A DNA stretch of 64,000 bases, taken from the IMG/VR virus record IMGVR_UViG_3300042691_027609. One strand, 5' to 3'. A model generated the notes under the pieces. The model did not search any database. It was given only the letters and a program-made list of their open reading frames with translations, and had not been told where the DNA came from. Each line of letters starts with the position of its first letter. Within the stretch, counting starts at the first letter, position 1. Position numbers and translations under genes: made by a program. This document shows positions 18,521-38,115 of this stretch, piece by piece. The stretch is from a virus.

Positions 18521-18521
18521 A

Positions 18522-18530: not shown

Positions 18531-18538
18531 AAAAACAC

Positions 18539-20132: not shown

Positions 20133-20142
20133 AATATAATCA

Positions 20143-20364
20143 ATGATAATACCAATCGATAAAGCAAATCATTTTATAGCAGGAACAATCGTATATTGTC
20201 TTGCTATTTTGTTTTTGTCACCTATAGCGGCTTTAGTACCTGTTATAATGGTAGGAGTAGCGAAAGAATTGTATGATTTGTGGTCTGGAAAAGGAACACC
20301 TGATATTAACGATTTTTCATTCACTTTACTAGGAGCAATCCCAGTGTTAATAACTCATCTATGA
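20143..20364 (+). CDS. Small membrane protein (VanZ/YfiM-like; holin candidate)
   Basis: 'DKANHF...GVAKELYD...G...D' with TM helices; upstream of endolysin. Confidence 0.6.
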   Translation: MIIPIDKANHFIAGTIVYCLAILFLSPIAALVPVIMVGVAKELYDLWSGKGTPDINDFSFTLLGAIPVLITHL

Positions 20365-20636
20365 AAATAAAAAGAATAATAGCTTTGCCATTTTTAATAG
20401 GAATACCATTTCCTATATTGTTTGCTAATTGGGATCATCAAGTGTGGTTTACTGTTTTAGCATATATCTTTGCTTTTATTGGAGCTGGTTTAGCGATGGA
20501 TTTTAAAGAGTATAAAATACAACCAAAATTTATCGGAAATGTTCCTGAAGATGGGATAAAACCTGTTATTAACCAAACTTGGATGATATTTTTTATATCG
20601 CTCGTAATCAATTTAACAATAGCTAACTTATTCTAA
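20361..20636 (+). CDS. Small 3-TM membrane protein (holin candidate)
   Basis: Three hydrophobic segments; directly precedes the amidase. Confidence 0.55.
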   Translation: MKIKRIIALPFLIGIPFPILFANWDHQVWFTVLAYIFAFIGAGLAMDFKEYKIQPKFIGNVPEDGIKPVINQTWMIFFISLVINLTIANLF

Positions 20637-20638
20637 CC

Positions 20639-21298
20639 ATGAGATTAACACAAGCATCATTCCCAGCAGGACAATATATAGCTGAAGAACAACCCAAAAA
20701 ACAAATTTATATACATCATACAGCTGGTAACGCTAATCCGCATCAAGTATTTACGTATTGGGCTGGAAATCAAGAGCGTATTGCTACCTGCGTCACCGTA
20801 GGTGGTTTACCTAAAGCAGGAGACAACTGGATAGATGGTGAAGTAGTGCAAGGATTTAGTTCAAAATATTGGGCTTATCACTTAGGTCTTAAAGAATCAA
20901 CATTTCAAAAATTTAATTTACAATATAGATCATTAGACAAAACATCTATTGGCATTGAAATTTGTAATTGGGGACAATTAACTTATACGAATGGAAAATT
21001 TTACAATTATGTTAATAGAGAAGTTCCGGCTAGCGAAGTATGTGAACTATCTACACCTCATAGAGGACACAAATTTTATCACAACTATACTGACGCTCAA
21101 ATCGCCGCAGTAAAAGAGTTATTGATATTATGGAATCAAAAATATGGTATTCCTTTAACGTATTACGCAGATATTTGGGACGTTACGCCAAGAGCTCTTA
21201 AATGCGAATCAGGTGTTTTTACACATAATTCAGTTAGGTATGATAAGGTAGATGTATATCCGCATCCAAAACTTGTCGCGATGCTTCAATCACTATAA
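20639..21298 (+). CDS. N-acetylmuramoyl-L-alanine amidase (Amidase_2) endolysin
   Basis: 'IYIHHTAG', 'WAYHLG', 'SIGIEICN', 'YTDAQI', 'THNSVRYDKVDVYP'. Confidence 0.9.
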   Translation: MRLTQASFPAGQYIAEEQPKKQIYIHHTAGNANPHQVFTYWAGNQERIATCVTVGGLPKAGDNWIDGEVVQGFSSKYWAYHLGLKESTFQKFNLQYRSLDKTSIGIEICNWGQLTYTNGKFYNYVNREVPASEVCELSTPHRGHKFYHNYTDAQIAAVKELLILWNQKYGIPLTYYADIWDVTPRALKCESGVFTHNSVRYDKVDVYPHPKLVAMLQSL

Positions 21299-21607
21299 AT
21301 GAAACTAGCTAATATGAAACTTAAAAATTTATTTGAATTAGTAGGAACTAAAATCATAACTAAACAAACCTCAATAGATCCAAATACAGGAAAAATATCA
21401 TGGGATGTTGAGTATGAACCTGATTTTACTGATGTATTAAACAGTTTTAATACACTAATTGAAGATTTAGATAATACAATAAAAAAACACGGAATTAGAG
21501 ACGCATCAATAATAACTTCATTGAAAGCACTAAGAGCGACAAAATCTGCCCTACTAAAAACATTGCAATCCAAGTATCCAGAATACATAAAAGATTACAA
21601 AAACTAA
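21299..21607 (+). CDS. Hypothetical protein with MKLKNLFE leader
   Basis: ORF; likely start ATG 21314 giving 'MKLKNLFE'. Confidence 0.65.
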   Translation: MKLANMKLKNLFELVGTKIITKQTSIDPNTGKISWDVEYEPDFTDVLNSFNTLIEDLDNTIKKHGIRDASIITSLKALRATKSALLKTLQSKYPEYIKDYKN

Positions 21608-21625
21608 CAATTATATCCCAAACCA

Positions 21626-21886
21626 ATGAGGCCGTATAACGACCTAGAAGTTACAGAAGACTATGTCATAAGAGAGTTTGATCAAAACATTGATCCCATT
21701 GAGTTAATGTGGCATAGAGATCAAGAAGATAGAGTAGTTCAATCCATCACTTCAACAGACTGGCAATTACAATTAGACAATAGTTTACCTATTTCTTTAA
21801 ATAATTCGATATTTATACCAAAGCATTTATGGCATCGAGTAATAAAAGGAAGCAATACACTGAAAATAAAGATAGCAAAACTCTAG
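21626..21886 (+). CDS. Small cupin-like protein
   Basis: 'LMWHRDQEDR...WQLQLD...IFIPKHLWHRVIKG' cupin motifs 1 and 2. Confidence 0.75.
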   Translation: MRPYNDLEVTEDYVIREFDQNIDPIELMWHRDQEDRVVQSITSTDWQLQLDNSLPISLNNSIFIPKHLWHRVIKGSNTLKIKIAKL

Positions 21887-22143
21887 ATTTTCAACTAGTT
21901 TCTCTATTAATCGAAGCAGAAAGAACAAAAGGCGGTGTAAAGGTCAAAGCTGCATATCTAACAAAAGATAAATCAGCGATGAAAAAAGAAATAGATAGAG
22001 TTAAAAAATTGAAGTCAGACGATCCATCTGCATACAATAAATGGGATGCTGATTACGCTGACAAAGATAAAACAAAAAAATACAAAACAAAAAAATCGGC
22101 CGCTACTACAGCATACGAAAAAAGATTTGGTAAGAAAAAATGA
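21829..22143 (+). CDS. Small Lys-rich protein (start uncertain)
   Basis: 'LVSLLIEAE...DDPSAY...KTKKSAATTAYEKRFG'; the only upstream ATG overlaps the cupin gene by 58 nt. Confidence 0.6.
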   Translation: MASSNKRKQYTENKDSKTLDFQLVSLLIEAERTKGGVKVKAAYLTKDKSAMKKEIDRVKKLKSDDPSAYNKWDADYADKDKTKKYKTKKSAATTAYEKRFGKKK

Positions 22144-22421
22144 TAAGTCTACTTAGATTACTTTTAGAGTACGATGACAATGTAGAAAAAGCATTGTCAA
22201 ATAAAGCTAAAGCCACAAAAATATCTAAGACTATACTTAAACAAGTATATGAAAAGGGACTTAGTGCGTGGAAAGGAGGACATAGACCTGGAGTTAGTCA
22301 ACACCAATGGGCTATGGGAAGAGTAAATTCGTTCGTTACTGGAAAAGGTGGATCAAGAAAAGTTGATAAGGAATTATGGAAAAAAGCAAGAAAAAGTAAA
22401 CAGAAAAAATCAAAAAAATGA
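22140..22421 (+). CDS. Small basic protein of a family seen in T4-like phages and giant viruses
   Basis: 'ILKQVYEKGLSAWKGGHRPGVSQHQWAMGRVNSF'; leader MISLLRLLLE. Confidence 0.75.
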   Translation: MISLLRLLLEYDDNVEKALSNKAKATKISKTILKQVYEKGLSAWKGGHRPGVSQHQWAMGRVNSFVTGKGGSRKVDKELWKKARKSKQKKSKK

Positions 22422-22903
22422 TAAAGTTAAAAAATCTATTAAACGAAGTATCATATGATAAATCGGGTTTAGAAAAACCTCATTTAGCAGATAGAAATAA
22501 AGATAAAAAAATCTCTTCTTGGGAAAAAAAGGTGGCTTCAAAAATCGAAAAAAATGTCGATGAGGGAGCTCCTCAAGACGAGTACATGATTGGCACGAAA
22601 AAGTATTCAGTGGGCAGACCCCAACAATATCCAGAAATGTGTCAAGAGTGTGGAACAAAAATGTATGAAGGCGCATGTATGGAGTGCGATTACATGGATC
22701 AATCGTCAGAAATGTCGTCAGATCATGAAGTTGGAATGGCGCAAAATCTACTACAAGATATTATTCGAAACGCACAAGAGTTAATGCAAAAAATAGGAAA
22801 TCAAGAAATAAACCTTCCAGGTTGGATACAAGATCACATATCACAAGCTCAAAACTATATTGATCAAGCCAATGTTGGATATCATACTTTAGGAGAAGAT
22901 TAA
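22418..22903 (+). CDS. Mosaic protein: EF-hand-like loop, Cys4 ribbon, helical module
   Basis: Leader MIKLKNLLNE; DRNKDKKISSWE; CQEC...CMEC; 'DHEVGMA...LPGWIQDHIS'. Confidence 0.7.
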   Translation: MIKLKNLLNEVSYDKSGLEKPHLADRNKDKKISSWEKKVASKIEKNVDEGAPQDEYMIGTKKYSVGRPQQYPEMCQECGTKMYEGACMECDYMDQSSEMSSDHEVGMAQNLLQDIIRNAQELMQKIGNQEINLPGWIQDHISQAQNYIDQANVGYHTLGED

Positions 22904-22916
22904 AATTGACAGCGTA

Positions 22917-24542
22917 ATGCAAATAGACAAATTATTAGAACAACTGCTAATTATCGAAGACGATAAACTTCGTATGGAAAAACCGCCAAAAACTTTTGAG
23001 GATGATCCTATGAATTTTATTTTGAATAAGTATCAGAATCTAAATGAGATTTTGACAGAATTATTGACTGATAATTTTCAAGAATACATCACTGGTATTT
23101 ACATAATCGCACCAAAACCTACTACGTTTAAAATAGTTTTGCATAACGGGCAATACTTCTTTTTAACATATACACAAGAAGCGTATCAAGCAACAATAGC
23201 AGGAAAAAATTATTTCTTAATGACGGTTGGAGAAAAACAAAGAGCGATGTTAGCGATCTCTAGATTGTTAAGATGGGGAAGTCCACTTAAGACAAAAGGT
23301 CCTGAAGGAGCTGAACAAGGTGCAGAGGCTACAGATGCAACAGAAACACCCGCAGAAACTCCGCCAGCAGAAGGAGGAGAAAGTGGAGGCGAAGAAGAAA
23401 CTTTAGCTGAATCGAAAAATATAATAAAAAACCTTTTAGAGGTAGAAGTCAGCGGACAAGAAGCTGAAGTATTGGGCGTTGAATTATGGAACGCGTCGGT
23501 AAACTACAAAAAAGTACCACCAAAATACTCAAAATACGAAAAAGTATTTGACGAGTTACAAAAAATATCATCTAAATACAAAGTAGAAATACAACAGTAT
23601 TCTGGACAAAGAATATCAACAACTGATTTTTGGCAACAAGAAACAGGAAAATCAAAAGACGAACCAAAAACAGATCTAATATCAGTCGATAAAAAGAAAT
23701 TGAGACTTTCAGCAAAAAAAGGTCCTGCTCAAATAATGAGCGGAATAAAAGAAGAATCTAAAGCCACAATCCTTGCAGCCGCTAGGTCTGTTGGACTAGA
23801 TTCAGAAATCAAAAGTAGACTAATGAAAGAGATTGGTAGGTTGGCTGATACTACAAAAACTGAAAAATTAAATACTGGCGAATTAAGAAAAACTGATATT
23901 AAAAATTTAAAATCTAAAGTAAATATACAAGCAAAAAAAGTTTTAAATTCTGCTATTAAAGCTAACGCAGCTTTACAAAAAGATTTAGACGATCTATTCG
24001 TTAAAAATAAAGAATTTAAAAAAGCGTTTGTGTATGAAGCTATGACAGGAACTCAAAAATTTGGCAAAGGATCTCCAGCTGAAGCAAACTACGTAATCGC
24101 ATTTAGTAATGATTTTAATCACGTTAAATTTGAAGACGTATCAAAAATGAGTTCTCCTGTAATCGATAAGATTTCTGATAAAACAAAACTCTCAGTTAGT
24201 TTTAAGTCTACATCGTATAAAATAAAAGGCGAAAAAGCTGGATACAATTTCTTCTCAGTAATAAGACTTGGTCTTGAAGATTTAGTGGAAAAGCAAGACA
24301 AGCTAAACGAAGCAATGAAAAACGCAAATTTGAGTGAAAACGTTGTCATCGACAAAATAAAACAATTTTTGGCTTATTTACAAGATAAGTTTAATAAAGT
24401 GATAGATTATATATCAGAAAGTGTAAAAAAGCTTACTGAGCTTATCCAACAAGGAATTGAAAAAGCTTTAGAATTTCTTGGTATAGAAATACGAACATCT
24501 ATCGATTACACAGGACCAGAAGATTTTTATAGCATAATATAA
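22917..24542 (+). CDS. Multidomain protein with putative PD-(D/E)XK-like nuclease domain
   Basis: N-domain, acidic linker, then 'QEAE...EPKTDLISV...LRLSAKKG' restriction-endonuclease-like spacing. Confidence 0.6.
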   Translation: MQIDKLLEQLLIIEDDKLRMEKPPKTFEDDPMNFILNKYQNLNEILTELLTDNFQEYITGIYIIAPKPTTFKIVLHNGQYFFLTYTQEAYQATIAGKNYFLMTVGEKQRAMLAISRLLRWGSPLKTKGPEGAEQGAEATDATETPAETPPAEGGESGGEEETLAESKNIIKNLLEVEVSGQEAEVLGVELWNASVNYKKVPPKYSKYEKVFDELQKISSKYKVEIQQYSGQRISTTDFWQQETGKSKDEPKTDLISVDKKKLRLSAKKGPAQIMSGIKEESKATILAAARSVGLDSEIKSRLMKEIGRLADTTKTEKLNTGELRKTDIKNLKSKVNIQAKKVLNSAIKANAALQKDLDDLFVKNKEFKKAFVYEAMTGTQKFGKGSPAEANYVIAFSNDFNHVKFEDVSKMSSPVIDKISDKTKLSVSFKSTSYKIKGEKAGYNFFSVIRLGLEDLVEKQDKLNEAMKNANLSENVVIDKIKQFLAYLQDKFNKVIDYISESVKKLTELIQQGIEKALEFLGIEIRTSIDYTGPEDFYSII

Positions 24543-24550
24543 TCAAATAT

Positions 24551-24907
24551 ATGTCATTTAATTTACAAAAATATCTCATAGAAAATAATTTGACCCTAAC
24601 AGGTAAAATAAGACTTCGTGAAGAGGAAGAAGATGCAGAAACTGAACCTTCAAAAGAAGACATGAAATCGACAGAAAAGGATATGAGAGATCTCGATAAA
24701 AATAAAAACCAACTTAAAAATTTACAAGCAAAAGTAAAAGACATAATCTTCAAGTTTACTAAAGATACACCTCAGGGTAAAGTCTTGATAGATGTAACAG
24801 CATATAAAAAAGCAATTGGAGATTTACCTAAAAAAATAAAAGATCTCAAAAAGAAAATTGACGCGGTAGAAAATCCACAAGCAGATGATTCAGAAGATCA
24901 AGACTAA
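24551..24907 (+). CDS. Hypothetical charged coiled-coil protein
   Basis: Leader 'MSFNLQKYLIEN', similar to the start of the 31697 gene. Confidence 0.7.
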   Translation: MSFNLQKYLIENNLTLTGKIRLREEEEDAETEPSKEDMKSTEKDMRDLDKNKNQLKNLQAKVKDIIFKFTKDTPQGKVLIDVTAYKKAIGDLPKKIKDLKKKIDAVENPQADDSEDQD

Positions 24908-25723: not shown

Positions 25724-27322
25724 ATGAGTGAGCAACAAAATATAAAAGAAAAAATAAAGGAAGAGTTTGTAAAATGTGCTCAAGATCCTGTTTACTTCAT
25801 GAAGAAGTATTACATGATTCAACATCCGCAAAGAGGTCGACAATTGTTCGATCTTTATCCATTTCAGGAAAAAGTTTTACGTCTATTCCAAAAGTATCCC
25901 GACTCAATTATTAATAAATCTAGACAGTTGGGTATATCGACACTTGTTTCTGCATATTCTTTGTGGTTGATGATATTCAATAAGGATAAAAACGTTCTTG
26001 TAATAGCTACCAAACAAGATACCGCAAAAAATATGGTAACTAAAGTAAGATTTGCTTACGATAACCTACCAGTCTGGCTTAGAATAGGAGCTACTGCAAT
26101 TGAAAACAATAGGTTAAGCTTAAGATTGACAAATGGATCTCAGATTAAAGCCGTATCAGCTGCAGGTGACTCTGGTCGTTCTGAAGCTGTGTCGCTGCTT
26201 GTAATCGATGAGGCTGCGTTTATTGACAACATTGAAACTATATACACTGCGGCTAAAATGACTCTTGCTACCGGTGGTGGGTGCATTGCGCTTTCTACTC
26301 CAAATGGTATGGGTAATTGGTTCCATAAGACTTATACAACTGCTCAAAAGCAAGAGAATAATTTTATACCCATATCTTTACCGTGGACCGTCCATCCAGA
26401 AAGAGATCAAGCTTGGAGAGACGAACAAGACGTAGATTTAGGTAAAAGAAACGCTGCACAAGAATGCGATTGCGACTTCTTAAGCTCAGGTAATACAGTT
26501 ATCGAACCAGATATACTTACTTGGTACGAACAAAATATGATATGCGAACCAATTGAGAAAAGAGGTGTTGATAAATCTTATTGGATATGGGAATATCCTG
26601 ATCCTATGAAATATTATGCGGTGATCGCTGACGTTGCTCGAGGTGACGGATCAGATTATTCTGCTTTTCACGTAATAGATATAGATACTATGGCGCAAGT
26701 TGCAGAGTATCAATCTCAGTTGGGAACAAGAGAATACGCAAATGTTTTAATTTCTGCTGCCACCGAATACAATCAAGCGTTACTTGTCGTAGAAAATAAT
26801 AATATTGGATGGGACGTTGTTCAATCGATAGTAGAAAGTGGATACACTAATATGTATTATAGCTTAAGAACAGAGGGAAATTCGGATTTTGTTACATATA
26901 TAAACAAATACGAAAGATCAGATGGACTAGTCCCAGGATTTTCGATGAATCAAAGAACTAGACCACTTGCGATTGAAAGAATGAGAGATTCTATTGAGAA
27001 TAAAGTTGCGATAATAAAATCGCGTAGATTGTTAGAAGAGCTTAGAGTTTTTATTTGGAAAAATAATAAGCAACAAGCAATGAACGGATATAATGACGAT
27101 TTAACATTGTCTTTCGCAATGGGAATGTACTTGAGAGAAACATCTCTTAGGTATAGAAAGACAGCTGAAAGTTTGACATATAGTGCATTAAACAACTATT
27201 CAAGAACGACTAGTGAAATGCCTCTATACAACGCAAACAGTAACATAAATCAAAATCCGTGGGGAATGAACGTAAACAATGCCCAAGGTCAACAATTTGA
27301 AGATCTTAGGTGGCTAATATAA
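25724..27322 (+). CDS. terL: Terminase large subunit (T4 gp17-like)
   Basis: 'LYPFQ', Walker A 'KSRQLGIST', Walker B 'LLVIDEAAF', 'LSTPNG', nuclease 'ADVARGDGSDYS', 'NDDL'. Confidence 0.95.
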   Translation: MSEQQNIKEKIKEEFVKCAQDPVYFMKKYYMIQHPQRGRQLFDLYPFQEKVLRLFQKYPDSIINKSRQLGISTLVSAYSLWLMIFNKDKNVLVIATKQDTAKNMVTKVRFAYDNLPVWLRIGATAIENNRLSLRLTNGSQIKAVSAAGDSGRSEAVSLLVIDEAAFIDNIETIYTAAKMTLATGGGCIALSTPNGMGNWFHKTYTTAQKQENNFIPISLPWTVHPERDQAWRDEQDVDLGKRNAAQECDCDFLSSGNTVIEPDILTWYEQNMICEPIEKRGVDKSYWIWEYPDPMKYYAVIADVARGDGSDYSAFHVIDIDTMAQVAEYQSQLGTREYANVLISAATEYNQALLVVENNNIGWDVVQSIVESGYTNMYYSLRTEGNSDFVTYINKYERSDGLVPGFSMNQRTRPLAIERMRDSIENKVAIIKSRRLLEELRVFIWKNNKQQAMNGYNDDLTLSFAMGMYLRETSLRYRKTAESLTYSALNNYSRTTSEMPLYNANSNINQNPWGMNVNNAQGQQFEDLRWLI

Positions 27323-27331
27323 ATTTAAAAA

Positions 27332-29242
27332 ATGGCAGATCAACAACAACAAAAACAGAATAACTTATTTTCTACATTAAGAAGACTTTTTTCTACCGAC
27401 GTTATTATAAGAAATAATGGAGACGGTGCTCTTAAAGTAGTCGACGTAGATAGAATTCAAAACAATGGTGTTATTCAAACAAACGCTCTTGTAGATAGAT
27501 TTCATAAAATTTATACGACTTCTACCGCGTATGGAGTTAATCTTAACTTAGCACAAAACTACCAATCAGCCAGGATTCAAATTTATGCTGATTATGACGC
27601 TATGGATACAGATGCGATAGTATCTTCGGCTTTAGATATTATAGCTGACGAATGTACGCTTAAAAACGAACAGGGAGAAGTATTACAGATCAGATCTTCT
27701 GATGAAGCAATACAGAAAATACTTTACAACTTATTTTATTCTGTTCTAAATATAGAATTTACTCTTTGGTCATGGATTAGAAATATGTGTAAGTATGGAG
27801 ATTTCTATCTTAAGATGGAGATAGCCGATAAATATGGAGTGTACAATGTGATACCATTTTCTGCTTACAATATAATTAGACAAGAGGGATTCAACCCTAA
27901 CAATCCAAACGAAGTTAGATTCAAATACGATCCACTTGGAGCTCTAGGAACAACCTCAGGATTTAGCTCTGCTTACAACAACGAAGATCCAGGAATCTAT
28001 TTTGATAATTACGAAATGGCTCATTTTAGATTAACTGGAGATGTTAACTATTTACCGTACGGAAGATCTTATCTAGAACCAGGCAGAAAGTTATTTAAGC
28101 AGTACACTCTTATAGAAGATGCGATGCTGATCCATCGTATCACTCGTGCCCCAGAGAGAAGAACATTTTATGTGAATGTAGGAGCAATACCTCCAAACGA
28201 AGTAGAAAATTACATGCAGAGAATGATCAATAAGATGAAAAAAACTCCTCTTATAGATCCTAATACAGGTCAGTACAATCTAAAATACAACCAACAAAAT
28301 CTACTCGAAGATTTCTTTATCCCAGTCCGTGGCAACGATACTACAACAAAGATAGACACTGCAAAAGGTTTGGAATATAATGCTATTGAAGACGTACAGT
28401 ATTTTAGAGAGAAGCTTTTCGCAGCTCTAAAAATACCAAAAGCTTTCATGGGATACGAAAAGGATTTGACTGGTAAAGCCACATTAGCTGCAGAAGATAT
28501 TCGTTTTGCAAGAACAATAGAAAGAATACAGAGAATTATAGTTTCCGAATTAACTAAAGTTGCGCTAGTTCATTTATATGCTCATGGATATACAAACGAA
28601 TCAGCAGCTAATTTTACTCTCTCATTAACGAACCCTTCGATTATTTACGAACAAGAAAGAATCGCACTCTTCAAAGAAAAAGTTGCATTAGCGAAAGACG
28701 CTATGGAAGCAAACTTATTACCTAAAGATTTTATCTACGATAAGATATTCCAATTCTCTGAAGATCAATATGCTGAATTAGAAGATATGATCATTGAAGA
28801 TAAGAAAAAAGGGTTTAGAATAAAACAGATCGAAGAAGAAGGTAACGATCCAGCTGAAACAGGCCAAGTGTTTGGTACGCCTCATCAATTAGCTAGTTTG
28901 TACGGAGGAAAAGGGGATTCACCCGTGGACATTCCAACAGGCTATGATGAAACCGTAGAAAAAGGACCAGGAAGACCTAAAAAATACCAATCAAAAATTG
29001 GCACCGATGCGTCAGCTTTTGGAAGAGATCCTCTTGGTAAAAACGATATGAAATCAGCAACAGATCAAGGAGAAAATGATAAACTAAAGGTTCAATATAA
29101 AGGCGGACCTCTAGCTTACGAAGGCGCAATGGGAGAATATATAAAAAATAAACAAATGCTCGATCAGTTTGGAAGATCAACTAAAATGTACAATCAACCA
29201 AATCTTTTAAGTGAAGACAATATAAAAACTGATCTAGATTAA
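27332..29242 (+). CDS. gp20: Portal protein (T4 gp20-like)
   Basis: 'ALDIIADE', 'EDAMLIHRITRAPERRTFYVNVG', 'LEDFFIPVRG', 'DVQYFREKLFAALKIPK'. Confidence 0.93.
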   Translation: MADQQQQKQNNLFSTLRRLFSTDVIIRNNGDGALKVVDVDRIQNNGVIQTNALVDRFHKIYTTSTAYGVNLNLAQNYQSARIQIYADYDAMDTDAIVSSALDIIADECTLKNEQGEVLQIRSSDEAIQKILYNLFYSVLNIEFTLWSWIRNMCKYGDFYLKMEIADKYGVYNVIPFSAYNIIRQEGFNPNNPNEVRFKYDPLGALGTTSGFSSAYNNEDPGIYFDNYEMAHFRLTGDVNYLPYGRSYLEPGRKLFKQYTLIEDAMLIHRITRAPERRTFYVNVGAIPPNEVENYMQRMINKMKKTPLIDPNTGQYNLKYNQQNLLEDFFIPVRGNDTTTKIDTAKGLEYNAIEDVQYFREKLFAALKIPKAFMGYEKDLTGKATLAAEDIRFARTIERIQRIIVSELTKVALVHLYAHGYTNESAANFTLSLTNPSIIYEQERIALFKEKVALAKDAMEANLLPKDFIYDKIFQFSEDQYAELEDMIIEDKKKGFRIKQIEEEGNDPAETGQVFGTPHQLASLYGGKGDSPVDIPTGYDETVEKGPGRPKKYQSKIGTDASAFGRDPLGKNDMKSATDQGENDKLKVQYKGGPLAYEGAMGEYIKNKQMLDQFGRSTKMYNQPNLLSEDNIKTDLD

Positions 29243-29278: not shown

Positions 29279-30136
29279 ATGGCAGTCAAACATTCTAAAT
29301 ACAGAAATACGGGAGTTCTATTTGAGCTCTTAGTAAGACAAACTACATCAGACTTATTAAATAACAAAGACTCAAAAGCCGTAAAAATACTAAAAAAGTA
29401 TTTTAATAACACTGAATTGGGTAGAGAGTATGGTTTATATAACACTCTTGCAACGAGTAAAAAACTTAGCGAAGCTAAAGCTGAAATACTAATATCTACG
29501 TTAATAGAGCAGTTTAGAAAACTAGATATCGAAAAGATAAATAAGTTAAAATATAATTTAATAAAAGAAATTAAATTAAATTACGATATAGAAGATTTCT
29601 TTAAAGCCAAAATAGATAATTACAAAAATTACGCTTGTTTATATACTATATTTGAATCTCAGTATCATAAATTTATCGATACAAAACAAGTGTTACTCAA
29701 TAAAATAAATTTGTTAGAGTCGCTTAGCGATCAAAGCATAGTAGACAAAAAAGCTCCTCAATCTATAATGGAAGATTTCATGAGAGAGGACAAAGAAGTT
29801 AGATTGTTAGCATACAAAATTCTTGTTGATAAATTCAACGAGAGATACGAAACTCTTAGCGAAACACAAAAAACGATACTGAATAAATACGTTAGTAGCA
29901 TATCAGATACTAAGTCATTGGTGTCTTATCTAAACGAAAAAATCGAAGACGTAAAAACCAAATTAACTAAACTATCAAAATCTACCACTGATAAAGTGAT
30001 GAGAATAAAGTTACAAGAGGTAGTAAAGTTAATAAAGCCGTTGGAAGAAAACAAATCAATAAAAGACGAATCTGTTATTGGCATATTGCAATGTTACGAT
30101 TTAATAGATGAAATCAATGAACAAAAAGATAAATAA
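29279..30136 (+). CDS. Helical head-assembly-region protein
   Basis: 285-aa ORF between portal and protease with its own promoter motif. Confidence 0.7.
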   Translation: MAVKHSKYRNTGVLFELLVRQTTSDLLNNKDSKAVKILKKYFNNTELGREYGLYNTLATSKKLSEAKAEILISTLIEQFRKLDIEKINKLKYNLIKEIKLNYDIEDFFKAKIDNYKNYACLYTIFESQYHKFIDTKQVLLNKINLLESLSDQSIVDKKAPQSIMEDFMREDKEVRLLAYKILVDKFNERYETLSETQKTILNKYVSSISDTKSLVSYLNEKIEDVKTKLTKLSKSTTDKVMRIKLQEVVKLIKPLEENKSIKDESVIGILQCYDLIDEINEQKDK

Positions 30137-31697
30137 AGAGTTCGATATGCACTCAGCAAATCGTAATCTGAGAGCACCCGAAATAACTTTTTCTATAACA
30201 AATCCAAGATTGGACGACATATTTAATATGGAATTTGGTCCGACAGATTATATAGAAAAAGAAGGCGATATATACTATACGTTAACTCCAAATGAATTTG
30301 ATAGGTTCTTAGATTTTGCAATGTCTTCCGGATTTGATGTAGATAGATATGTAAACCAAATAGAAGATTTATCAGAAGAAGGATCAGTTACCGGTGGAGA
30401 AGCTTTTTTGCCATCATTACACGCTAAAAAGAAAAGCACTGTAAAAGAGGGGGAATATCCGTACAGAATAGAAGTCGCAGTAAGCGACGCTCATAAAGCT
30501 TTAGATATAGTTCGATCTGATAGAATGTTTAGTAATAATGTTAGAATATACTCTTCAAATTTTTTCTTATCAGATGATCCAAGCATTATTTCTGAATTGT
30601 TTGATGAATTTGAAAAACAAGGCGTTCAAATGATATCGTATGAAGTGCCTAGTGAAGCATCAGATTTTTACGAAAGCATACTATCAGGATATAAAGAAGT
30701 ACCAGGATTCAGACCTGGTCACACTCCAGACAAAGGCGGGTTTCAGTATAAAGATCTTTGGGGTATGAATGAATCTTATACTCCATCAAAAACCAATGCA
30801 GAAGAATTAGCTCGCGTAGAAGCATTATTATCTCAAGCTCATGTAGATAAAGCATACTCAGTAATGAGTTCTTATGAATTTAGAATTAAAATGCTTAGAT
30901 TACTAGTCGGACTAGAGAAAAAATATGGTATTGCACTACCATTTTTAAAATTTGGTTTGATGGTAGGTGATTATCTTGCTAAATATTTTCCAGGATTCAA
31001 AGGGAAATTTGGTCCATACGCTCAAAATTGGAAATCAGTAAAAGATCATATTGAACAGAATATTCAACAACAAAGTATGAATGAGGACGCATGTTGGTCA
31101 GGATACCAAATGGTTGGTATGAAAGACAAAGGCGGAAGACAAGTTCCCAATTGCGTGCCTGTTAACGAAGAAGAATTAGAAGAGGCGTATATTCCTTCAA
31201 ATATTGAAGAATTCGCTAAAAGAAAAGGTATAATGCCTATAGTTAAACAAGTCTCACGTTGGGCAGAAAAAGCGGGCAAACGTATTGTTGGTGGAACAGC
31301 GATTGGTAAAAATTATAGTACGTTAATCTTAGACTTAACTTACCAAGGCGGAGAAATAAGAATCAACACCGACACAGATGAGATAGAAGTTAAAGGCGAG
31401 GAAGTTTATGACTATAACAGTTTTGTTACTGCGTTAGGTACGTTAAATGAAAACTACGCTCGTTTTAGAAACGAAACCAAAACAAGATCAGGTTCAGAAC
31501 AGTATCATCAAGCTGTGAAGTTAGTGAAGAAAAAAGTACAAGAAATTTCTAAGCTACATAGTTACATGGAGAGAATGCAACAAGAGCTCAGCGAAACTCA
31601 AGACGGACTTAAAAAGAAAAAATACACACAAATGGCTATTGACAAAATCAAAGCTGAAGTAAAAGAACTAAATAATAAAATCAAAAAACTAAAATAA
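30108..31697 (+). CDS. Mosaic multi-module protein (candidate head-internal polyprotein)
   Basis: Unrelated-looking segments separated by LSE/VKE/FYE/MNE/MNE/VNE/LEE/LNE; includes 'CWSGYQMVGMKDKGGRQVPNCVP'; exact start uncertain. Confidence 0.75.
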   Translation: MKSMNKKINKEFDMHSANRNLRAPEITFSITNPRLDDIFNMEFGPTDYIEKEGDIYYTLTPNEFDRFLDFAMSSGFDVDRYVNQIEDLSEEGSVTGGEAFLPSLHAKKKSTVKEGEYPYRIEVAVSDAHKALDIVRSDRMFSNNVRIYSSNFFLSDDPSIISELFDEFEKQGVQMISYEVPSEASDFYESILSGYKEVPGFRPGHTPDKGGFQYKDLWGMNESYTPSKTNAEELARVEALLSQAHVDKAYSVMSSYEFRIKMLRLLVGLEKKYGIALPFLKFGLMVGDYLAKYFPGFKGKFGPYAQNWKSVKDHIEQNIQQQSMNEDACWSGYQMVGMKDKGGRQVPNCVPVNEEELEEAYIPSNIEEFAKRKGIMPIVKQVSRWAEKAGKRIVGGTAIGKNYSTLILDLTYQGGEIRINTDTDEIEVKGEEVYDYNSFVTALGTLNENYARFRNETKTRSGSEQYHQAVKLVKKKVQEISKLHSYMERMQQELSETQDGLKKKKYTQMAIDKIKAEVKELNNKIKKLK

Positions 31698-32098
31698 TGG
31701 ACAATTTTAACATCAAACAGTATTTGTTTGAAAACAATTTAGGACCATTTACCAAACCAGATGGTATTAGCGCTGATCAAGTCATTGATGTCGATGCGAC
31801 TTTAAGAACTATTCAGTCTGCAGTAAGATCTGGAGCGGTAGTAATGGTTGGAGACAAGAAAATTTTTAAGATGCCATTCATAAATTTGGCAACCTTTGAA
31901 GGCGGTGGCAAAGTACAGTTTCCAAGACAAGCTGAGCCTTTAGAAGATATGTTAGCAACTGAAATAACGATTGACGGAAAAACGATCAGTCCAATATATA
32001 AAGATGCTCCACCTCCACCAACAAAACAAGTAGTAAAACCATTCGATACATCAATGTACTCCGATCCAGATTCTATGTACTATAGAGGAGGAGATTAA
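31697..32098 (+). CDS. Hypothetical protein with MDNFNIKQYLFEN leader
   Basis: 133 aa ORF, coupled; leader resembles that of 24551. Confidence 0.7.
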   Translation: MDNFNIKQYLFENNLGPFTKPDGISADQVIDVDATLRTIQSAVRSGAVVMVGDKKIFKMPFINLATFEGGGKVQFPRQAEPLEDMLATEITIDGKTISPIYKDAPPPPTKQVVKPFDTSMYSDPDSMYYRGGD

Positions 32099-32251: not shown

Positions 32252-33754
32252 ATGAAAACAATAAGCAAACAATACCAAGACCTATTAGAGGGTAAAATGA
32301 GTAGAGGCAACTTCGTTAGAAACTGCCGTCAACAATTTCCTCAATACATCTCTCCAGTTACGTCCATAGATGATGCTATCAAGATTCTTAAAAGCAAGAG
32401 AATCATAGCAGAATCAATCTCAGAAAACGCGGATTATAAAGATCCATACGTGAAAGGATATATAGATAACGAAAATGGTCGTTCTCTTGATGATTGCCCG
32501 TATGACGAGCGTAGGGCTGCCACATTATGGAAAAATGGTTGGATGGACGCAGAAACTGAAAAACAAATGGATCACGATGAAGAGACGTATAGAAGAGAGA
32601 CAGGTGGATACGGAGATCTATATAAAGAATCGTTGAATGAAGCTGAAGAAAAACCATCGGGTAATTGGGAAAAATCAACCGGTAAAGATCAATATGGTCG
32701 TTTCAAAGATGTAGACAATGTAAATTATACTACATTTTTAAGAGCCGTTGCTTACGAAGTCGGAAAAACTCCTGATATTAGTGATGATATGATGCCTGCT
32801 CTTCTTGAAAAGATAGCTAAGAAAATGAGAAAGGATCCCAATGCATATAGAGAATTGGTGATTGCTAATTATGCTGAAATTGCAAAACAAGACGAATCAT
32901 TGAAGATGGTACCCGTAAAAGGTAAAAATCAAAATGACGAGAACAATATGATGGAAAAAATTAAAGGTCAAGAAACGCCAAAAGCGACTCCATCAAAGAC
33001 AGAAAATAAAAAAGGCAAGCCAGAAGGCGTAAAAGAAATGGGAATCACTCCAAAAAAAGCTAAAGGTATCACAGCAGTAATGGATATGCCGGGTAAAGAA
33101 AAAGTATTAGACTCACTTAAAGAATCATTAAAGAAGAGCTTAAAAGAAGATACTCATTACAAATATAATCGAGGATCCAAAGCAGTAACTCCTGAGGGAG
33201 AAGGAACAGTAGTTGAAGTAATGGGAGGAACAGTTACTGTTGAATTCAAAGACGGTAGACAAAAAGATTACCAAGTAAATACGCTTGATCACTTTGAGAA
33301 AAAAGCTACTGAATCCTTCAGACCTGGTGTAGATCTTGGTGCATCGTTTGAAAAATTCAAATCGTCAATGGCTGATGAATCTAAGTTTGAAGATTTGATT
33401 AAGCAATACGATTGGTATGCTGAAATGAGTGATGACTCTAGAAAGTGGGACGCTCAACAAGAAATGGAAAGAGAACTTAAGAGATTAGCAAAAACAATAG
33501 GAAGCGATATGGCAGCTTCAATTTGGAATCAATATGCACCTAAAAATAGAAAAGTGCAAGCTTCTTATTTTGATATGAGAGAGGGTAAAAAAGACAAATT
33601 CTCTAAACTTAAAGAATTTTTGAAAAAAGCTATTAAAGAGAAAAAAGCCGTTATAGTACCAAAAGGCTCCAATGATCAACAAAAATTAGCTGCATTAGCA
33701 AAAGCGGGTATTAACACTAATCCCGGATCTTCTGCAGAAATAATAGAAAAATAA
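32252..33754 (+). CDS. Mosaic multi-module protein (candidate head-internal polyprotein)
   Basis: Modules bounded by LLE/IAE/ISE/YKE/LNE/LKE/LKE/MRE/IKE; includes an Rmf-like 'Y.KGY...CPY...W.NGW' module and an SH3-like 'TPEGEGTVVEV..TVTVEF' module. Confidence 0.75.
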   Translation: MKTISKQYQDLLEGKMSRGNFVRNCRQQFPQYISPVTSIDDAIKILKSKRIIAESISENADYKDPYVKGYIDNENGRSLDDCPYDERRAATLWKNGWMDAETEKQMDHDEETYRRETGGYGDLYKESLNEAEEKPSGNWEKSTGKDQYGRFKDVDNVNYTTFLRAVAYEVGKTPDISDDMMPALLEKIAKKMRKDPNAYRELVIANYAEIAKQDESLKMVPVKGKNQNDENNMMEKIKGQETPKATPSKTENKKGKPEGVKEMGITPKKAKGITAVMDMPGKEKVLDSLKESLKKSLKEDTHYKYNRGSKAVTPEGEGTVVEVMGGTVTVEFKDGRQKDYQVNTLDHFEKKATESFRPGVDLGASFEKFKSSMADESKFEDLIKQYDWYAEMSDDSRKWDAQQEMERELKRLAKTIGSDMAASIWNQYAPKNRKVQASYFDMREGKKDKFSKLKEFLKKAIKEKKAVIVPKGSNDQQKLAALAKAGINTNPGSSAEIIEK

Positions 33755-33757
33755 TAA

Positions 33758-34396
33758 ATGGATAAACAACTTCTAATAGAGCATAGCCTATTTACTCCGA
33801 CAAAAAAAGCACTTTCAGAAGGCACAAGAAACGGAGTCGGCAACATGATAGTATCAGGTTTGGTACAAGCATGTGATAAACCCAATGCTAATAAAAGAAT
33901 ATATCCTTATGATACTTTAAAGAGGCAGGTTGATTCGTATATGAAAGGACCTATTTCAGAAAATAGAGCATTAGGAGAATTAGATCATCCCGAATCCTCA
34001 GTTATAAACCTTAAAAATGTTTCGCACAATATAATTAAATTGTGGTGGGACGGAAAAAACCTTTTCGGAGACATAGAAATATTGCCAACCCCATCAGGAA
34101 ACATTCTTAAACAACTGTTTGCAAATAATATAACTGTAGGAATATCGTCAAGAGCGATGGGATCAGTTAGTCCAATCGGCGAAGGTTTGGTACAAGTAGA
34201 AGATGACTTAGAGTTAATTTGTTGGGATTTCGTATCTACGCCTTCCACATACGGTGCATACGTAAGACCAATAGGAGGTAATTCAGGACTTCAAGAATCT
34301 TACAATTACGCAACCCAAATAAATAAATACAACAGAGCCAATAGATTGGTATCAGACATAATCTGTACTATGGGCGGATATTGTTGCGTAAATTAA
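33758..34396 (+). CDS. gp21: Prohead core protease (T4 gp21-like)
   Basis: 'NANKRIYP', 'ALGELDHP', 'VSHNI', 'VGISSRAMGS', 'WDFVSTPS'. Confidence 0.93.
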   Translation: MDKQLLIEHSLFTPTKKALSEGTRNGVGNMIVSGLVQACDKPNANKRIYPYDTLKRQVDSYMKGPISENRALGELDHPESSVINLKNVSHNIIKLWWDGKNLFGDIEILPTPSGNILKQLFANNITVGISSRAMGSVSPIGEGLVQVEDDLELICWDFVSTPSTYGAYVRPIGGNSGLQESYNYATQINKYNRANRLVSDIICTMGGYCCVN

Positions 34397-34537: not shown

Positions 34538-35593
34538 ATGGAAGACATTTACAAGCAAGCGCTTTTAGACGCTAAAGCAGTACGTGCTAGTGCTATGGCA
34601 AACGCTAAAGCAAGTCTTCAAGAAGCTTTTGAACCAAAAATTCAAGAGATGATTCGTCTTAAACTTTCTGAAGAACTCGACGAAGAGTTAGATGAAGAAA
34701 AAAACATGGAAGAAGCTGATAACATGGAAGAAGCCGACAAAATGGAAGAAGGCGATAACATGGAAGAAGGCAACATGGAAGAAGGCGATATGGACGAAGC
34801 TTCATTAGAAGAAATCTTAGCTGAGCTCGATGAACTAGCAAAACAAGAAGAGGGTTACCAAGAAGAGGGTGACAACATGGAAGAAGGCGATAACATGGAA
34901 GAAGCTGAAGACGAAGACGAATCTGAAGACGAAGAGTCAGAAGAAGAATCAGAAGAAGAGGCAGAAACCGAAGAAGTTGATGACGATACAAAAATTATCG
35001 ATATCACTTTAGGAGATCTTAAAGCCGTACTCCAATCAATTCAAGGTGGCGGAGACATGGAAATGGGCTCCGAGGAAGGATCTGAAGAAACCGCATCTGA
35101 AGAAGGATCTGACGAAGACGTAACTTTGGGTGAAGTTGACTTAGACGAAATCCTAAATAGCCTCCAAGAAGAGAAAGACAAAGAAAAAGAAGACGCGAAG
35201 AAAGAAGGTAAGAAAATGGAAGAGAAGAAAAAGATGGAAGAAGTTAGAACCAATCTTAATAAAGCTAATAAGACTATCGAAGTTTTAAGAGCTGAATTAA
35301 ATGAGGTGAATCTTCTAAACGCTAAACTTCTTTACATGAATAAAATTTTCAAAGCCAAGAATCTTAGCGAATCTCAAAAAGTAAGTGTGGTTTCTGCTCT
35401 TGATAGAGCGTCAAACGTGAAAGAGGCCAAAAACATTTACGAAACACTAAAAGAGAATATTCAACCGAAAAAATCTCAATTAGTAGAATCAAAAGGCTTC
35501 GCCTCAAAACCAGCAGGCGTAGCTCCTAAAAAGCCTATTATGGAATCCGATGCATTCGTTTCCAGATGGCAAAAAATAGCTGGTATCAAATAA
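34538..35593 (+). CDS. Prohead scaffolding protein (gp22-like)
   Basis: Very acidic coiled coil between protease and MCP; C-terminal 'RWQKIAGI'. Confidence 0.85.
   Translation: MEDIYKQALLDAKAVRASAMANAKASLQEAFEPKIQEMIRLKLSEELDEELDEEKNMEEADNMEEADKMEEGDNMEEGNMEEGDMDEASLEEILAELDELAKQEEGYQEEGDNMEEGDNMEEAEDEDESEDEESEEESEEEAETEEVDDDTKIIDITLGDLKAVLQSIQGGGDMEMGSEEGSEETASEEGSDEDVTLGEVDLDEILNSLQEEKDKEKEDAKKEGKKMEEKKKMEEVRTNLNKANKTIEVLRAELNEVNLLNAKLLYMNKIFKAKNLSESQKVSVVSALDRASNVKEAKNIYETLKENIQPKKSQLVESKGFASKPAGVAPKKPIMESDAFVSRWQKIAGIK
34703..34905 (+). repeat. Imperfect 15-18 bp tandem repeats (AACATGGAAGAAG..) encoding NMEE(A/G)D
   Basis: Five to six copies at 34703-34798 and two more at ~34873-34905. 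Confidence 0.85.
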
Positions 35594-35617: not shown

Positions 35618-37351
35618 ATGGCAAATTTAGTAAACTCTTTACTTAGCGAGTCAGCAAATTCTGCTTACTCCGACCAGTACAGCGTTGCCAATAAACTTAC
35701 AAAAAAGTGGGCAAAATCTGGTCTGCTTGAAGGTCTCGCTGACCACGATCGCTCTGCGATGGCAGTGATTCTTGAAAATCAAGCAAAACAATTAGTTGTT
35801 GAATCATCCAATACTAACTTCGGTGGTGCAGCCGGTACAGGCGCAACTTTCACAGCTGGTGCTGGTGAACAATGGGCTGGTGTAGCTCTTCCGTTGGTTC
35901 GTAAGATCTTCGGACAAATTGCAGCTAAAGAATTCGTTAGCGTTCAGCCAATGAATCTTCCTGCAGGTCTAGTATTCTTCTTGGACTTCCAATATGGTGG
36001 TGCCAATGGAGTTTCTAATCCTGCTTTCCCTACTAACACTTCTGTTTACGGTGCTCCTTCTACCAACTTTGGTAACGAAGCATCTGGAGGTCTTTATGGT
36101 GGTGGTCAGTTCGGATACTCTCTAAACCTTTTCTCAGCATCTGTATCGTCTTCCAATACACCGGCGATTACCTCAGGTTCTGCTACTTGGGCTGATGTTA
36201 ATTTTGATGCTACTGTATCAGCATCTGTTGTTGCTAGCACAATCACTAGATTGGGTATTCCAACATCTTCTTTGACTTCTGATTGGAATCAATTGGGCGT
36301 ACGCTCTTTTGCTTTATCATCTGCAGCTGGAAATGCAACTCAATTCAATGATAGTAATATTTTGTCAAACTTTACTCAAGTTTCTCAAAGTGCAGCTGGA
36401 ACTTATATCGTATTCTACGTTAATAAAGGTATCGCTTTAGGCGGTGCTAGTAGTGGAACAAATAATAACTATATTGTTAGCTTTAATAAGCAAACTGATT
36501 TTAATTCTCGTGGTGACTTTGAAGATCGTTCAAATACTCCTGCGGTTCCTAATGCGTATAACGCTTCATCTATTGTTATTCCAGAAATCAACGTTGGTAT
36601 GAAGTCTGAGACTATTTCTGCTAAAACTCGTAAGTTAAAAGCACAATGGACTCCAGAATTCGCTCAAGACCTTAATGCTTATCACGCACTTGATGCTGAA
36701 GCTGAATTGACAGGTCTTCTTTCTGAGCACGTTTCTTTAGAAATCGATTTGGAAGTAATGGATATGTTGATTCAAAATGCAGCTACAACTGAATACTGGT
36801 CAGCAAAAGTTGGTGCTACAATCAATGGCGCAACAACTCCAGCAACATACAACGCTGCAACTGCTGCTTCAACTGCGGGTCAATACTACACACAAATGAC
36901 TTGGTTCCAAACTTTGGGTATCAAGCTTCAAAAAGTGTCTAACATTATTCACCAACGTACATTACGCGGTGGCGCTAACTTCATGGTTGTTTCTCCAACT
37001 GTTGCAACTATCTTGGAATCAATTCCTGGATTTGCTGCTGATACAGACGGAGCTGCTGATACAATGAAGTATGCTTTCGGTGTACAGAAGATCGGTGCTC
37101 TTAACAGCCGTTACAAAGTCTATAAGAATCCTTATATGACTGAGAACGTAATCCTTATGGGTTATCGCGGTACAGCATTCCTTGAGTGCGGTGCTGTTTA
37201 CGCTCCTTACGTGCCTTTGATCATGACTCCTCTTGTGTACGATCCTAATACCTTCACTCCAAGAAAAGGTATCATGACTCGTTACGCATTGAAGATGGTT
37301 CGTCCTGAATTCTATGGTCGTGTGATCGTATCCGACACAAACGTTATCTAA
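35618..37351 (+). CDS. gp23: Major capsid protein (T4 gp23-like)
   Basis: 'LENQAK', 'LPLVRK', 'VSVQPMNLPAGLVFFLDF', 'AKTRKLKAQWTPEFAQDLNAYHALDAEAEL', 'YAPYVPL', 'FTPRKGIMTRY'. Confidence 0.96.
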   Translation: MANLVNSLLSESANSAYSDQYSVANKLTKKWAKSGLLEGLADHDRSAMAVILENQAKQLVVESSNTNFGGAAGTGATFTAGAGEQWAGVALPLVRKIFGQIAAKEFVSVQPMNLPAGLVFFLDFQYGGANGVSNPAFPTNTSVYGAPSTNFGNEASGGLYGGGQFGYSLNLFSASVSSSNTPAITSGSATWADVNFDATVSASVVASTITRLGIPTSSLTSDWNQLGVRSFALSSAAGNATQFNDSNILSNFTQVSQSAAGTYIVFYVNKGIALGGASSGTNNNYIVSFNKQTDFNSRGDFEDRSNTPAVPNAYNASSIVIPEINVGMKSETISAKTRKLKAQWTPEFAQDLNAYHALDAEAELTGLLSEHVSLEIDLEVMDMLIQNAATTEYWSAKVGATINGATTPATYNAATAASTAGQYYTQMTWFQTLGIKLQKVSNIIHQRTLRGGANFMVVSPTVATILESIPGFAADTDGAADTMKYAFGVQKIGALNSRYKVYKNPYMTENVILMGYRGTAFLECGAVYAPYVPLIMTPLVYDPNTFTPRKGIMTRYALKMVRPEFYGRVIVSDTNVI

Positions 37352-37440: not shown

Positions 37441-38115
37441 ATGACAGAAAATAATTTTACTGAAAAAAGAAAACCAAAAAACCCAATCAAGTTTTTAATT
37501 CAATTAAATGAAGAGCAGAAACAAGCAAAATCGACAGTTTTAAACAGTAAAATATCTGTTATAAGAGGTCAAGCTGGATCTGGAAAATCATTATTAGCAG
37601 CGCAAGTTGCTCTAGACATGTTGTTTAGTAGAGCTGTGGAAAAAATCATCTTAACAAGACCAGCGGTCACTTCTGGAGAAGAAATCGGTTTTTTACCCGG
37701 TTCGAAAGACGATAAATTGGCTCCGTACACGGCAGCCATATATGATAACATGTATCGTCTTTATCGAAAAGAAGCGATAGACAAGCAATTGGTAGATGGT
37801 CACATTGAAGTTATCCCACTAGCATTTATGAGAGGTCGTAACTTAACTAACTGTTGTGTTGTTGTTGATGAAGGTCAAAATATCACACACAGACAAATGG
37901 AATTGTTGCTAGGTAGAATGTGTAACGGATCAAAAATGATTATTTGCGGAGATACTGCACAGATCGATTTAAAAGATAAAAAAATGTCAGGTTTCAATTT
38001 TATATGTACAAATTTTAAAAACATAGAAGGATTTTCAGTGATACAGTTAAAAACAAATCATAGAGATCCTATAGTAGAAAAAATATTAGAAATATATAAA
38101 GAACACTCTGATTAA
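37441..38115 (+). CDS. phoH: PhoH-like ATPase
   Basis: 'GQAGSGKS', 'LTRPAV', 'GFLPG', 'PLAFMRGR', 'VDEGQN', 'GDTAQID'. Confidence 0.92.
   Translation: MTENNFTEKRKPKNPIKFLIQLNEEQKQAKSTVLNSKISVIRGQAGSGKSLLAAQVALDMLFSRAVEKIILTRPAVTSGEEIGFLPGSKDDKLAPYTAAIYDNMYRLYRKEAIDKQLVDGHIEVIPLAFMRGRNLTNCCVVVDEGQNITHRQMELLLGRMCNGSKMIICGDTAQIDLKDKKMSGFNFICTNFKNIEGFSVIQLKTNHRDPIVEKILEIYKEHSD

Follow-up and report, generated by a model that had tools for sequence, protein, structure and literature searches.

The 64,000-nucleotide stretch of phage DNA considered here (IMG/VR record IMGVR_UViG_3300042691_027609; hereafter the window) is AT-rich, with a GC content of about 0.30-0.44, and comes from an uncultured T4-like myovirus. 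Its head genes include ORF529, a 529-residue open reading frame (ORF) that an initial annotation, made from the DNA letters alone, described as a mosaic polyprotein: a string of small modules separated by putative prohead-protease sites. The reading frame and every listed junction site lie where that annotation put them. Comparative analysis now suggests that ORF529 is a protein of the head core that has grown into a chain of exchangeable cargo modules, jointed at sites for the phage's own protease. Gene callers and homologues indicate that translation likely starts at Met4 (30117), giving 526 residues: an identical 526-residue database entry begins there, and homologues begin MNKK or MDKK.

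The surrounding genes are listed in Table 1. T4-type phages carry their head genes in the order portal, gp67, gp68, gp21, gp22, and gp23. Because this order places gp67 and gp68 between the portal and the gp21 protease, ORF529 occupies the gp67/gp68 slot. The initial annotation had likewise put it between portal and protease, which holds for its position, if not as direct adjacency: ORF285 lies before it, and ORF133 and ORF500 after it. The S77 protease is 29% identical to T4-type gp21, and its His77 and Ser130, presumably the catalytic residues, align with gp21 His85 and Ser140; it is the presumed enzyme that would cut ORF529. Judged by the capsid gene, Flavobacterium phage immuto and Microcystis phage Mel-JY01 are the closest relatives in culture, and a megablast search with the head region returned matches limited to capsid-gene fragments of these two phages. 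The capsid protein itself has a predicted maturation site, V-V-E/S (a slash marks a known or putative cut), roughly opposite the known T4 gp23 cut, LTE/AEIGG; a 15-residue BLAST gap falls there, so that the register is a reading of a gapped alignment.

Table 1. Head genes of the window, the modules of ORF529, and a predicted capsid-protein cut site. Residue numbers (aa) refer to the protein in question. AF2, AlphaFold2; pLDDT, predicted local distance difference test; pTM, predicted template modelling score; pI, isoelectric point; CTS, capsid targeting sequence.
Feature	Coordinates	Strand	Details
Large terminase (TerL)	25724-27322		
gp20-like portal (T4 type)	27332-29242	+	upstream landmark of the slot; Pfam PF07230, E=2.7e-71
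ORF285	29279-30136		after portal, before ORF529
ORF529, mosaic polyprotein (putative)	30108-31697	+	529 aa; from ORF list
Module A (aa 1-90)	30108-30377	+	beta-alpha-beta-beta-alpha-beta domain, aa 14-88, pLDDT 86-95; acidic, pI 4.5; end LSE 90
Linker peptide (aa 91-114)	30378-30449	+	disordered, pLDDT 31-36; G-S-V-T-G-G-E-A-F-L-P motif; end VKE/G
Module B (aa 115-189)	30450-30674	+	second beta-alpha-beta-beta-alpha-beta domain (aa 118-180); acidic; end FYE/S
Module C (aa 190-222)	30675-30773	+	33-aa unstructured peptide; SGY..FRPGHT.DKGGFQYKDLW motif; low pLDDT; end MNE/S
Module D (aa 223-326)	30774-31085	+	helical, basic, pI 9.3; AF2 helices 230-328, pLDDT >90; end MNE/D
Module E (aa 327-354)	31086-31184	+	Cys-bracketed C-W-x-G-Y...P-N-C; end VNE; coordinates include spacer EELEE (aa 355-359), end LEE/A
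Module F (aa 360-448)	31185-31451	+	alpha/beta; begins A-Y-I-P-S-N; end LNE/N; AF2 of isolated module pLDDT 86.8, pTM 0.76
Module G (aa 449-529)	31452-31694	+	C-terminal basic coiled coil; begins N-Y-A-R-F-R-N-E-T; pI 10, net charge +11; long AF2 helices
ORF133, small protein	31697-32098	+	T4-CTS-like leader MDNFNIKQYLFE
ORF500, second mosaic protein	32252-33754	+	leader MKTISKQYQDLLE
Prohead serine protease, Peptidase_S77	33758-34396	+	T4 gp21 family; PF03420, E=5.4e-23; PHROG 207, E=7.6e-50
Highly acidic scaffold protein	34538-35593	+	gp22 position; Glu/Asp-repeat-rich sequence; synteny
gp23-like major capsid protein	35618-37351		
Predicted capsid maturation site V-V-E/S (aa 60-62)	35795-35803	+	N-terminal alignment with T4-type gp23
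PhoH	37441-38115		

A predicted string of separate modules

An AF2 model of ORF529, built with a 97-sequence alignment, has a mean pLDDT of 77.8 and a pTM of 0.34, with local pLDDT above 90 in five blocks. The confident blocks are residues 14-88, 118-180, 225-325 (helical), and 362-444 (alpha/beta); residues 450-527 form long helices that are modelled a little less confidently (block means 57-80). Between them run low-confidence linkers at 90-114, 181-222, and 328-353. All eight listed sites, with glutamates at LSE 90, VKE 114, FYE 189, MNE 222, MNE 326, VNE 354, LEE 359, and LNE 448, fall in linkers or at domain edges, and further copies of the motif at 163, 167, 368, 479, 496, and 520 lie inside helices. 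As modelled, ORF529 is beads on a string, its modules without fixed mutual arrangement, and not a single fold. Charge also differs along the chain: modules A, B, and F are acidic, D and G basic.

Module E is the short cysteine-bounded element singled out by the initial annotation as bracketed exactly by MNE and VNE, and so it is: the cysteines are residues 329 and 349, and the 23-residue string, which runs to 351, lies between MNE/DA and VNE. Its AF2 confidence is low. It matches PHROG 9737 best (E=4.9e-10) and six other PHROGs, all of unknown function, and recurs in 98 phage records, mostly of T4-like cyanophages; in homologues it occupies other positions in the chain, with the motif on both flanks. 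A tblastn search of ORF529 against cultured phages matched module E, or E plus part of F, and nothing else in the protein. In such phages it may also lie in other proteins. In the Methylophilales phage Melnitz-3 (locus L002, 4990-6942) the Cys mini-module sits inside a 650-residue protein with a cytidylyltransferase-like amino terminus, and in Synechococcus phage S-SSM5 (L001, 5326-6531) it occurs twice in tandem, in a protein encoded between the terminase-subunit genes. In these two cases the pattern C-W-x-[GT]-[YH]...C stands outside head modules.

Mosaic homologues and their breakpoints

A word-indexed search returned 274 relatives at E<=0.001, with query coverage from 16% to 99%. An exhaustive HMMER search with the whole of ORF529 yielded 2498 cluster representatives at E<0.001, and most of the matches listed fall on residues ~351-445, that is, on the region of module F, by far the most widespread module. 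Mapped by BLAST, the first 120 relatives show block edges near residues 114, 177-187, 223/227, 289-292, 316-327, 352-357, and 439-449.

Iterative searches with the individual modules (A scanned as residues 1-114, B as 115-189, C as 190-222, D as 223-326, E as 327-359, F as 360-448, and G as 449-529) resolved more than 60 architectures among 251 homologues, among them A-C-x-G, A-B-C-x-D-x-G, x-F-A-G, A-E-C-D-F-G, and A-C-x-F-D-G. Modules are absent, present, or reordered: F may stand ahead of A, and E between A and C. Module A was found in 65 homologues by jackhmmer, in some of them downstream of F, and module B is present in 30 of the 251. The C/D joint is the main entry point for extra cassettes, homologue insertions falling exactly between residues 223 and 227. 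Modules that have no counterpart in ORF529, including a KOW-like small domain and one starting with VFSPEDY, are also bracketed by the motif in homologues, and in all more than ten unrelated module families end in it.

The breakpoints themselves cluster on the motif. Compared all against all, the homologues have 35% of their internal homology breakpoints no more than 2 residues from a motif, and 59% no more than 4, against 14.7% (standard deviation (sd) 0.7) and 24.3% (sd 0.9) when motif positions are circularly shifted; likewise, 295 of 509 distinct insertion events have a motif at most 5 residues from both ends, against 40.6 (sd 5.9) for random segments of equal length, all these counts pooling related proteins, weighted to the two edges of F, and hence not being independent events. 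The closest syntenic relative (L004, with a portal 89% identical) illustrates the pattern. Its 431-residue version is colinear with ORF529 and 65% identical up to ...LWGMNE/S; its middle is wholly different; and a carboxyl-terminal high-scoring segment pair, 86% identical, starts at residue 440, six residues ahead of LNE/N. By alignment, these two close relatives differ by one cassette, exchanged cleanly at two joints.

The initial annotation had proposed that modules are gained and lost at the x-x-E linkers, that separate searches with each segment would find them in different combinations with boundaries at such sites, and that AlphaFold would show independent domains. The homologues and the model bear this out on each count. 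Nor do the opposite outcomes that it named as refuting obtain: homologues are not colinear over the full length, the chain is not predicted to fold as one unit, and the breakpoints do coincide with the glutamate sites.

The metagenomic protein P0240 (341 residues) contains module F, and its first 96 residues are 39% identical to residues 449-552 of the window's major capsid protein; it may be a genuine fusion, or an artefact of gene calling or assembly.

The junction motif

Five junction sites (114, 189, 222, 359, and 448) are retained in 73-96% of aligned homologues. The motif is kept in 32 of 36 at 114 (where homologues mostly have NPFKE), 57 of 62 at 222, 82 of 94 at 359, and 109 of 114 at 448; at 189 it is kept in 32 of 44, and the glutamate in 42 of 44. 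Motifs inside folded domains are retained in just 4-35%: 1/24 at 163, 2/24 at 167, 16/100 at 368, and 34/96 at 520.

A logo pooled over the five junctions shows a hydrophobic residue at P3 in 89% of columns (L 45%, I 19%, F 11%, V 10%, and M 4%) and glutamate at P1 in 91%, with aspartate in 2%. P2 is free, P4 and P5 are variable, and P1' is A, N, S, D, or G. The T4 enzyme, gp21, cleaves behind L/I-X-E, and aspartate at P1 blocks processing of the internal protein III (IPIII) leader (PMC9026906). In sequence, the ORF529 junction logo is this gp21 rule. As for a candidate S77 substrate, the phage encodes a gp21-family protease with the aligned histidine and serine, and the logo and AF2 linkers point to exposed L/I-x-Glu sites with glutamate, not aspartate, at P1. 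The Ala, Ser, or Gly at P3 that marks phiKZ/SPN3US-type sites is not what the junctions show.

A constant carboxyl-terminal module in a fixed slot

What the initial annotation missed is that the last 81 residues, module G, are constant, and form part of a conserved head gene in the gp67/gp68 slot. Module G is carboxyl-terminal in 126 of 127 occurrences. Of 69 IMG/VR loci recovered by a profile scan, 67 carry G, and each of these 67 reads TerL, portal, ORF285, and then the gene ending in G. Downstream, the ORF500-like gene, protease, scaffold, and capsid follow in that order wherever the contig extends, the ORF500-like gene being undetected in 3 loci and the capsid gene in 1. The gene thus lies between portal and prohead protease in the window and in these loci, as gp67 and gp68 do in the T4-type order.

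Within this fixed setting, the gene ranges from 143 to 678 residues. Where the portal is 86-91% identical to that of the window, the G gene has 246, 431, 526, 569, 593, or 678 residues, compared with 529 here. The minimal 143-residue forms have just a leader and G, with a T-G-x-G...P peptide in between that corresponds to residues 91-114 of ORF529. Mel-JY01 has a minimal gene of that kind (WWT39308), its last part G-like, and immuto, whose gp199 and gp200 fill this slot, has a leader-plus-peptide gene there. T4-type gp68 is itself basic (pI 10.1), and its 80-residue carboxyl-terminal part is preceded by I-N-E/N.

The neighbouring ORF285 follows the portal in all 67 related loci, and also in immuto and Mel-JY01. 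It has neither a Pfam nor a PHROG match, and is a conserved head-module gene with no T4 counterpart at that position.

Leader-tagged forms and a module pool

Several modules also occur singly. Of 23 database proteins that begin with module F, 20 start at the module's beginning, and each of these 20 carries a short leader that ends in hydrophobic-x-Glu directly ahead of A-Y-V-P (MKKSELQTIIKE-ELRKVLSE is an example). P0151 is a 107-residue standalone D behind the leader MIKLKDILNE, and in P0133 module E directly follows the leader MAKLTNIVKE. The leaders on standalone modules resemble, in sequence, the T4 CTS. A leader of about ten residues with a hydrophobic-x-Glu end, as on T4 internal proteins, is present in many homologues and standalone modules, and absent from ORF529.

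In the window, similar leaders are found on the ORFs starting at 15696, 22140, 22418, 22917, and 24551 (15696-24907), and on ORF133, ORF500, and the protease, which begins MDKQLLIE. They are short and amphipathic, for example MISLKSLFLE, MISLLRLLLE, MIKLKNLLNE, MSFNLQKYLIE, and MDNFNIKQYLFE. Over all window ORFs the excess is modest: 25 of 66 have the motif at residues 7-20, compared with 24% of internal windows. A 156-residue ORF in the tail/baseplate arm (7130-7600, minus strand) starts with MAKLDILRQIIKE-EVVKALRQELPRLLSE, the same double leader as on metagenomic standalone module-F proteins.

ORF500, ORF133, and the ORF at 22418 have modules in common with proteins that contain F. The amino-terminal part of ORF133 matches P0177, which has module F downstream. 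ORF500 shares separate segments with the F-containing proteins P0150, P0162, P0133, and P0112, and because these segments are common to four different proteins, it is a second mosaic chain built from the same modules. This sharing therefore points to one module pool, whose members are deployed one at a time behind a leader or joined in a chain. Residues 66-102 of ORF500 (32447-32557) match the Pfam family RMF (ribosome modulation factor; PF04957, E=7.2e-8, above the curated cut-off). In Mel-JY01, a gene annotated as ribosomal protein S21 (RpsU) lies between the protease and scaffold genes (L007, 9155-9382); this is a second ribosome-related gene in a slot like that of the window's RMF-like module.

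Searches for function

Pfam searches with whole ORF529 and with each of the seven modules gave coiled-coil noise on G only, and PADLOC likewise reported only a coiled-coil match. Foldseek comparison of the full model with the PDB and BFVD returned generic ferredoxin-like/RRM pairs for A plus B, and uncharacterised phage proteins. Module F was pursued alone: Foldseek against the PDB gave nothing below E=0.1; a profile search against PDB sequences gave no match; the ESM Atlas yielded no usable feature match; and a wide VIA-align comparison peaked at Z 6.7, below the tool's meaningful level, with no clear known fold. The T4 MotA carboxyl-terminal domain (Z 5.5) and the PI31 FP domain (Z 5.9) were considered for module F and set aside, both scores being under that level.

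A probable jointed cargo polyprotein of the head core

We favour the view, at a probability of roughly 0.7, that in ORF529 a head-core protein of the T4 gp67/gp68 slot has been enlarged to a cargo polyprotein jointed by protease sites, its packaging, its cleavage, and the effector roles of its pieces being inferred. Module G would dock the chain onto the very acidic scaffold core (34538-35593) during prohead assembly, and so carry the upstream modules inside. Upstream of G, some six small modules have accumulated, some folded and others short peptides. During head maturation, the phage's own S77 protease would cut after each junction glutamate to release pieces of about 3-12 kDa. Of the pieces, D and G, being basic, should remain with the DNA; the acidic A, B, and F may be retained and injected, or else expelled. 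Cassettes are gained, lost, and reordered between related phages at the joints. Such exchange is workable because a module that brings its own site inserts without disturbing its neighbours.

Several observations weigh against this account. ORF529 itself has no T4-like amino-terminal leader: the first 25 residues contain no motif, and the first one stands at residue 90. The number of [LIVM]-x-E motifs is at chance (12 found, 10.9 expected from composition), so that the list of motifs is no evidence by itself and their number was dropped as an argument; what exceeds chance, as judged from the alignments, is their placement and conservation. Two junctions, 326 (9/39) and 354 (40/69), are partly kept, in regions where the alignment is poor. 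Conserved motifs also occur at 479 and 496, inside the helices of G; conservation alone therefore cannot tell a cut site from a structural residue. Profile comparison (hhalign) of G with T4-type gp68 and gp22 showed no similarity, with probabilities below 1% and that for gp68 at 0.6% (gp67 was not compared), so the analogy with gp68 is one of position and composition. Recognisable function was found in no module by Pfam, PADLOC, PDB profiles, Foldseek, VIA-align, or the ESM Atlas. The pooling of related proteins in the breakpoint and insertion counts belongs here as well.

The more serious alternative accepts packaging and cutting, and takes the chain to be purely an assembly factor: a core or scaffold accessory like gp67/gp68 but larger, its fragments lost from the head or degraded before DNA packaging or in its course, with no role in the next host. 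The gp67/gp68 slot and the conservation of G in every related locus speak for it, as does the departure of most T4 core-protein fragments from the head (PMC9026906). The acidity of modules A, B, and F recalls scaffold debris, and no module was found to resemble known effectors. Yet assembly factors are normally conserved, and here, in phages whose portals are nearly identical, the variable part may be missing altogether or reach about 550 residues; the minimal 143-residue forms are evidently sufficient. Moreover, the same modules occur elsewhere in phage genomes as leader-tagged single proteins, in the manner of T4 internal proteins, and folded domains of 9-12 kDa seem unlikely to exit through capsid pores. 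On balance we consider a pure assembly role unlikely.

That ORF529 is simply an uncut multidomain protein, its joint motif a preference at linkers or helix caps that travels with each module, or else a mark left by recombination, is very improbable. In favour of this reading, the motif is short, its count is at chance, conserved copies sit inside the helices of G, and the cuts in ORF529 are predicted ones. Against it, more than ten unrelated module families share the same terminal motif. The near-requirement for glutamate over aspartate at P1, beside variable P2, P4, and P5, is better explained by the specificity of a protease than by a generic acidic linker. The leader ends on standalone versions of the same modules carry the identical motif, which also resembles the predicted capsid maturation site, and three residues with a free middle are too few to guide homologous recombination.

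A more ambitious form of the cargo-polyprotein account is plug-and-play capsid delivery in T4-like phages of aquatic bacteria: small jointed domains, spliced into the gp68-slot gene or tagged singly with a leader, would be loaded through the basic anchor, cut, and injected along with the DNA as host-takeover or anti-defence factors. This is possible, and we advance it tentatively, at less than even odds. The initial annotation's interpretation is supported in part: its comparative predictions held, while packaging, protease cleavage, and an effector role stay at the level of what we infer.

Relation to known systems

The leader, the gp21 rule, and core proteins cut into several fragments are all classical T4 biology. 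T4 gp22, gp67, and gp68 are each cut into several fragments by gp21 (PMC9026906), and T4 internal proteins, brought in by a leader that is cleaved off, are injected and counteract restriction (PMC9026906; PMC12373910). Because multi-site cutting of core proteins and capsid-targeted cargo are both established in T4, the strategy proposed for ORF529 extends a known one. The initial annotation held that a virus-type polyprotein strategy is not standard in phage annotation. To that extent it needs qualifying. A literature search aimed at earlier accounts found no description of phage head polyproteins with interchangeable modules joined at prohead-protease sites.

The T4 internal proteins (IPI, IPII, IPIII, and Alt) offer the closest parallel. 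In both cases, cargo would be addressed to the prohead core and released by an S77 protease after hydrophobic-x-Glu, and in both it is hypervariable between related phages, with only the address and the cut motif in common. The T4 proteins, however, carry one cargo per gene behind a 10-residue leader, whereas ORF529 has several modules per chain, with internal sites; in place of an amino-terminal leader, its constant element is the carboxyl-terminal basic coiled coil. Known targets exist for T4 Ip1-3 (GmrSD variants) and for none of the ORF529 modules. T4 gp67 and gp68 share the gene position, and the basic carboxyl-terminal part of gp68 follows I-N-E/N as G follows L-N-E/N, but they have 79 and 141 residues and no folded cassettes, compared with 143-678 residues in the ORF529 family.

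In the giant phages phiKZ, 201phi2-1, and SPN3US, too, a gp21-related protease cuts many head proteins after glutamate within a three-residue motif (PMC10052503). These phages have Ala, Ser, or Gly at P3, in contrast to the hydrophobic P3 of ORF529. SPN3US propeptides are cut at several sites, after A-x-E (PMC10052503), but 13 of 14 sites remove an amino-terminal propeptide from one mature protein, and do not separate interchangeable folded modules. Polyproteins of RNA viruses such as picornaviruses resemble ORF529 in yielding several products from one frame through a virus-encoded protease and a short site motif at each joint. They differ in yielding, in a fixed order, the proteins essential to replication and the capsid; the modules of ORF529 are accessory and vary between close relatives, and cutting would occur inside the assembled procapsid.

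Implications

As a simple rule at the sequence level, the joints allow packaged cargo to be sought in metagenomes, and they suggest how T4-type capsids might be designed to carry several proteins. If ORF529 and its relatives are packaged and cut, capsid-delivered phage proteins are far more than the handful of internal proteins of T4. Small domains from a large, shuffled pool (whole ORF529 has about 2500 cluster representatives, most listed matches falling on module F) would then reach the host before phage gene expression, and new anti-defence or host-takeover proteins could naturally be sought in that pool. Should the tentative reading of capsid delivery prove true, the turnover of cassettes between near-identical phages would record an arms race like that of T4 Ip1-3 with GmrSD, in polyprotein form.

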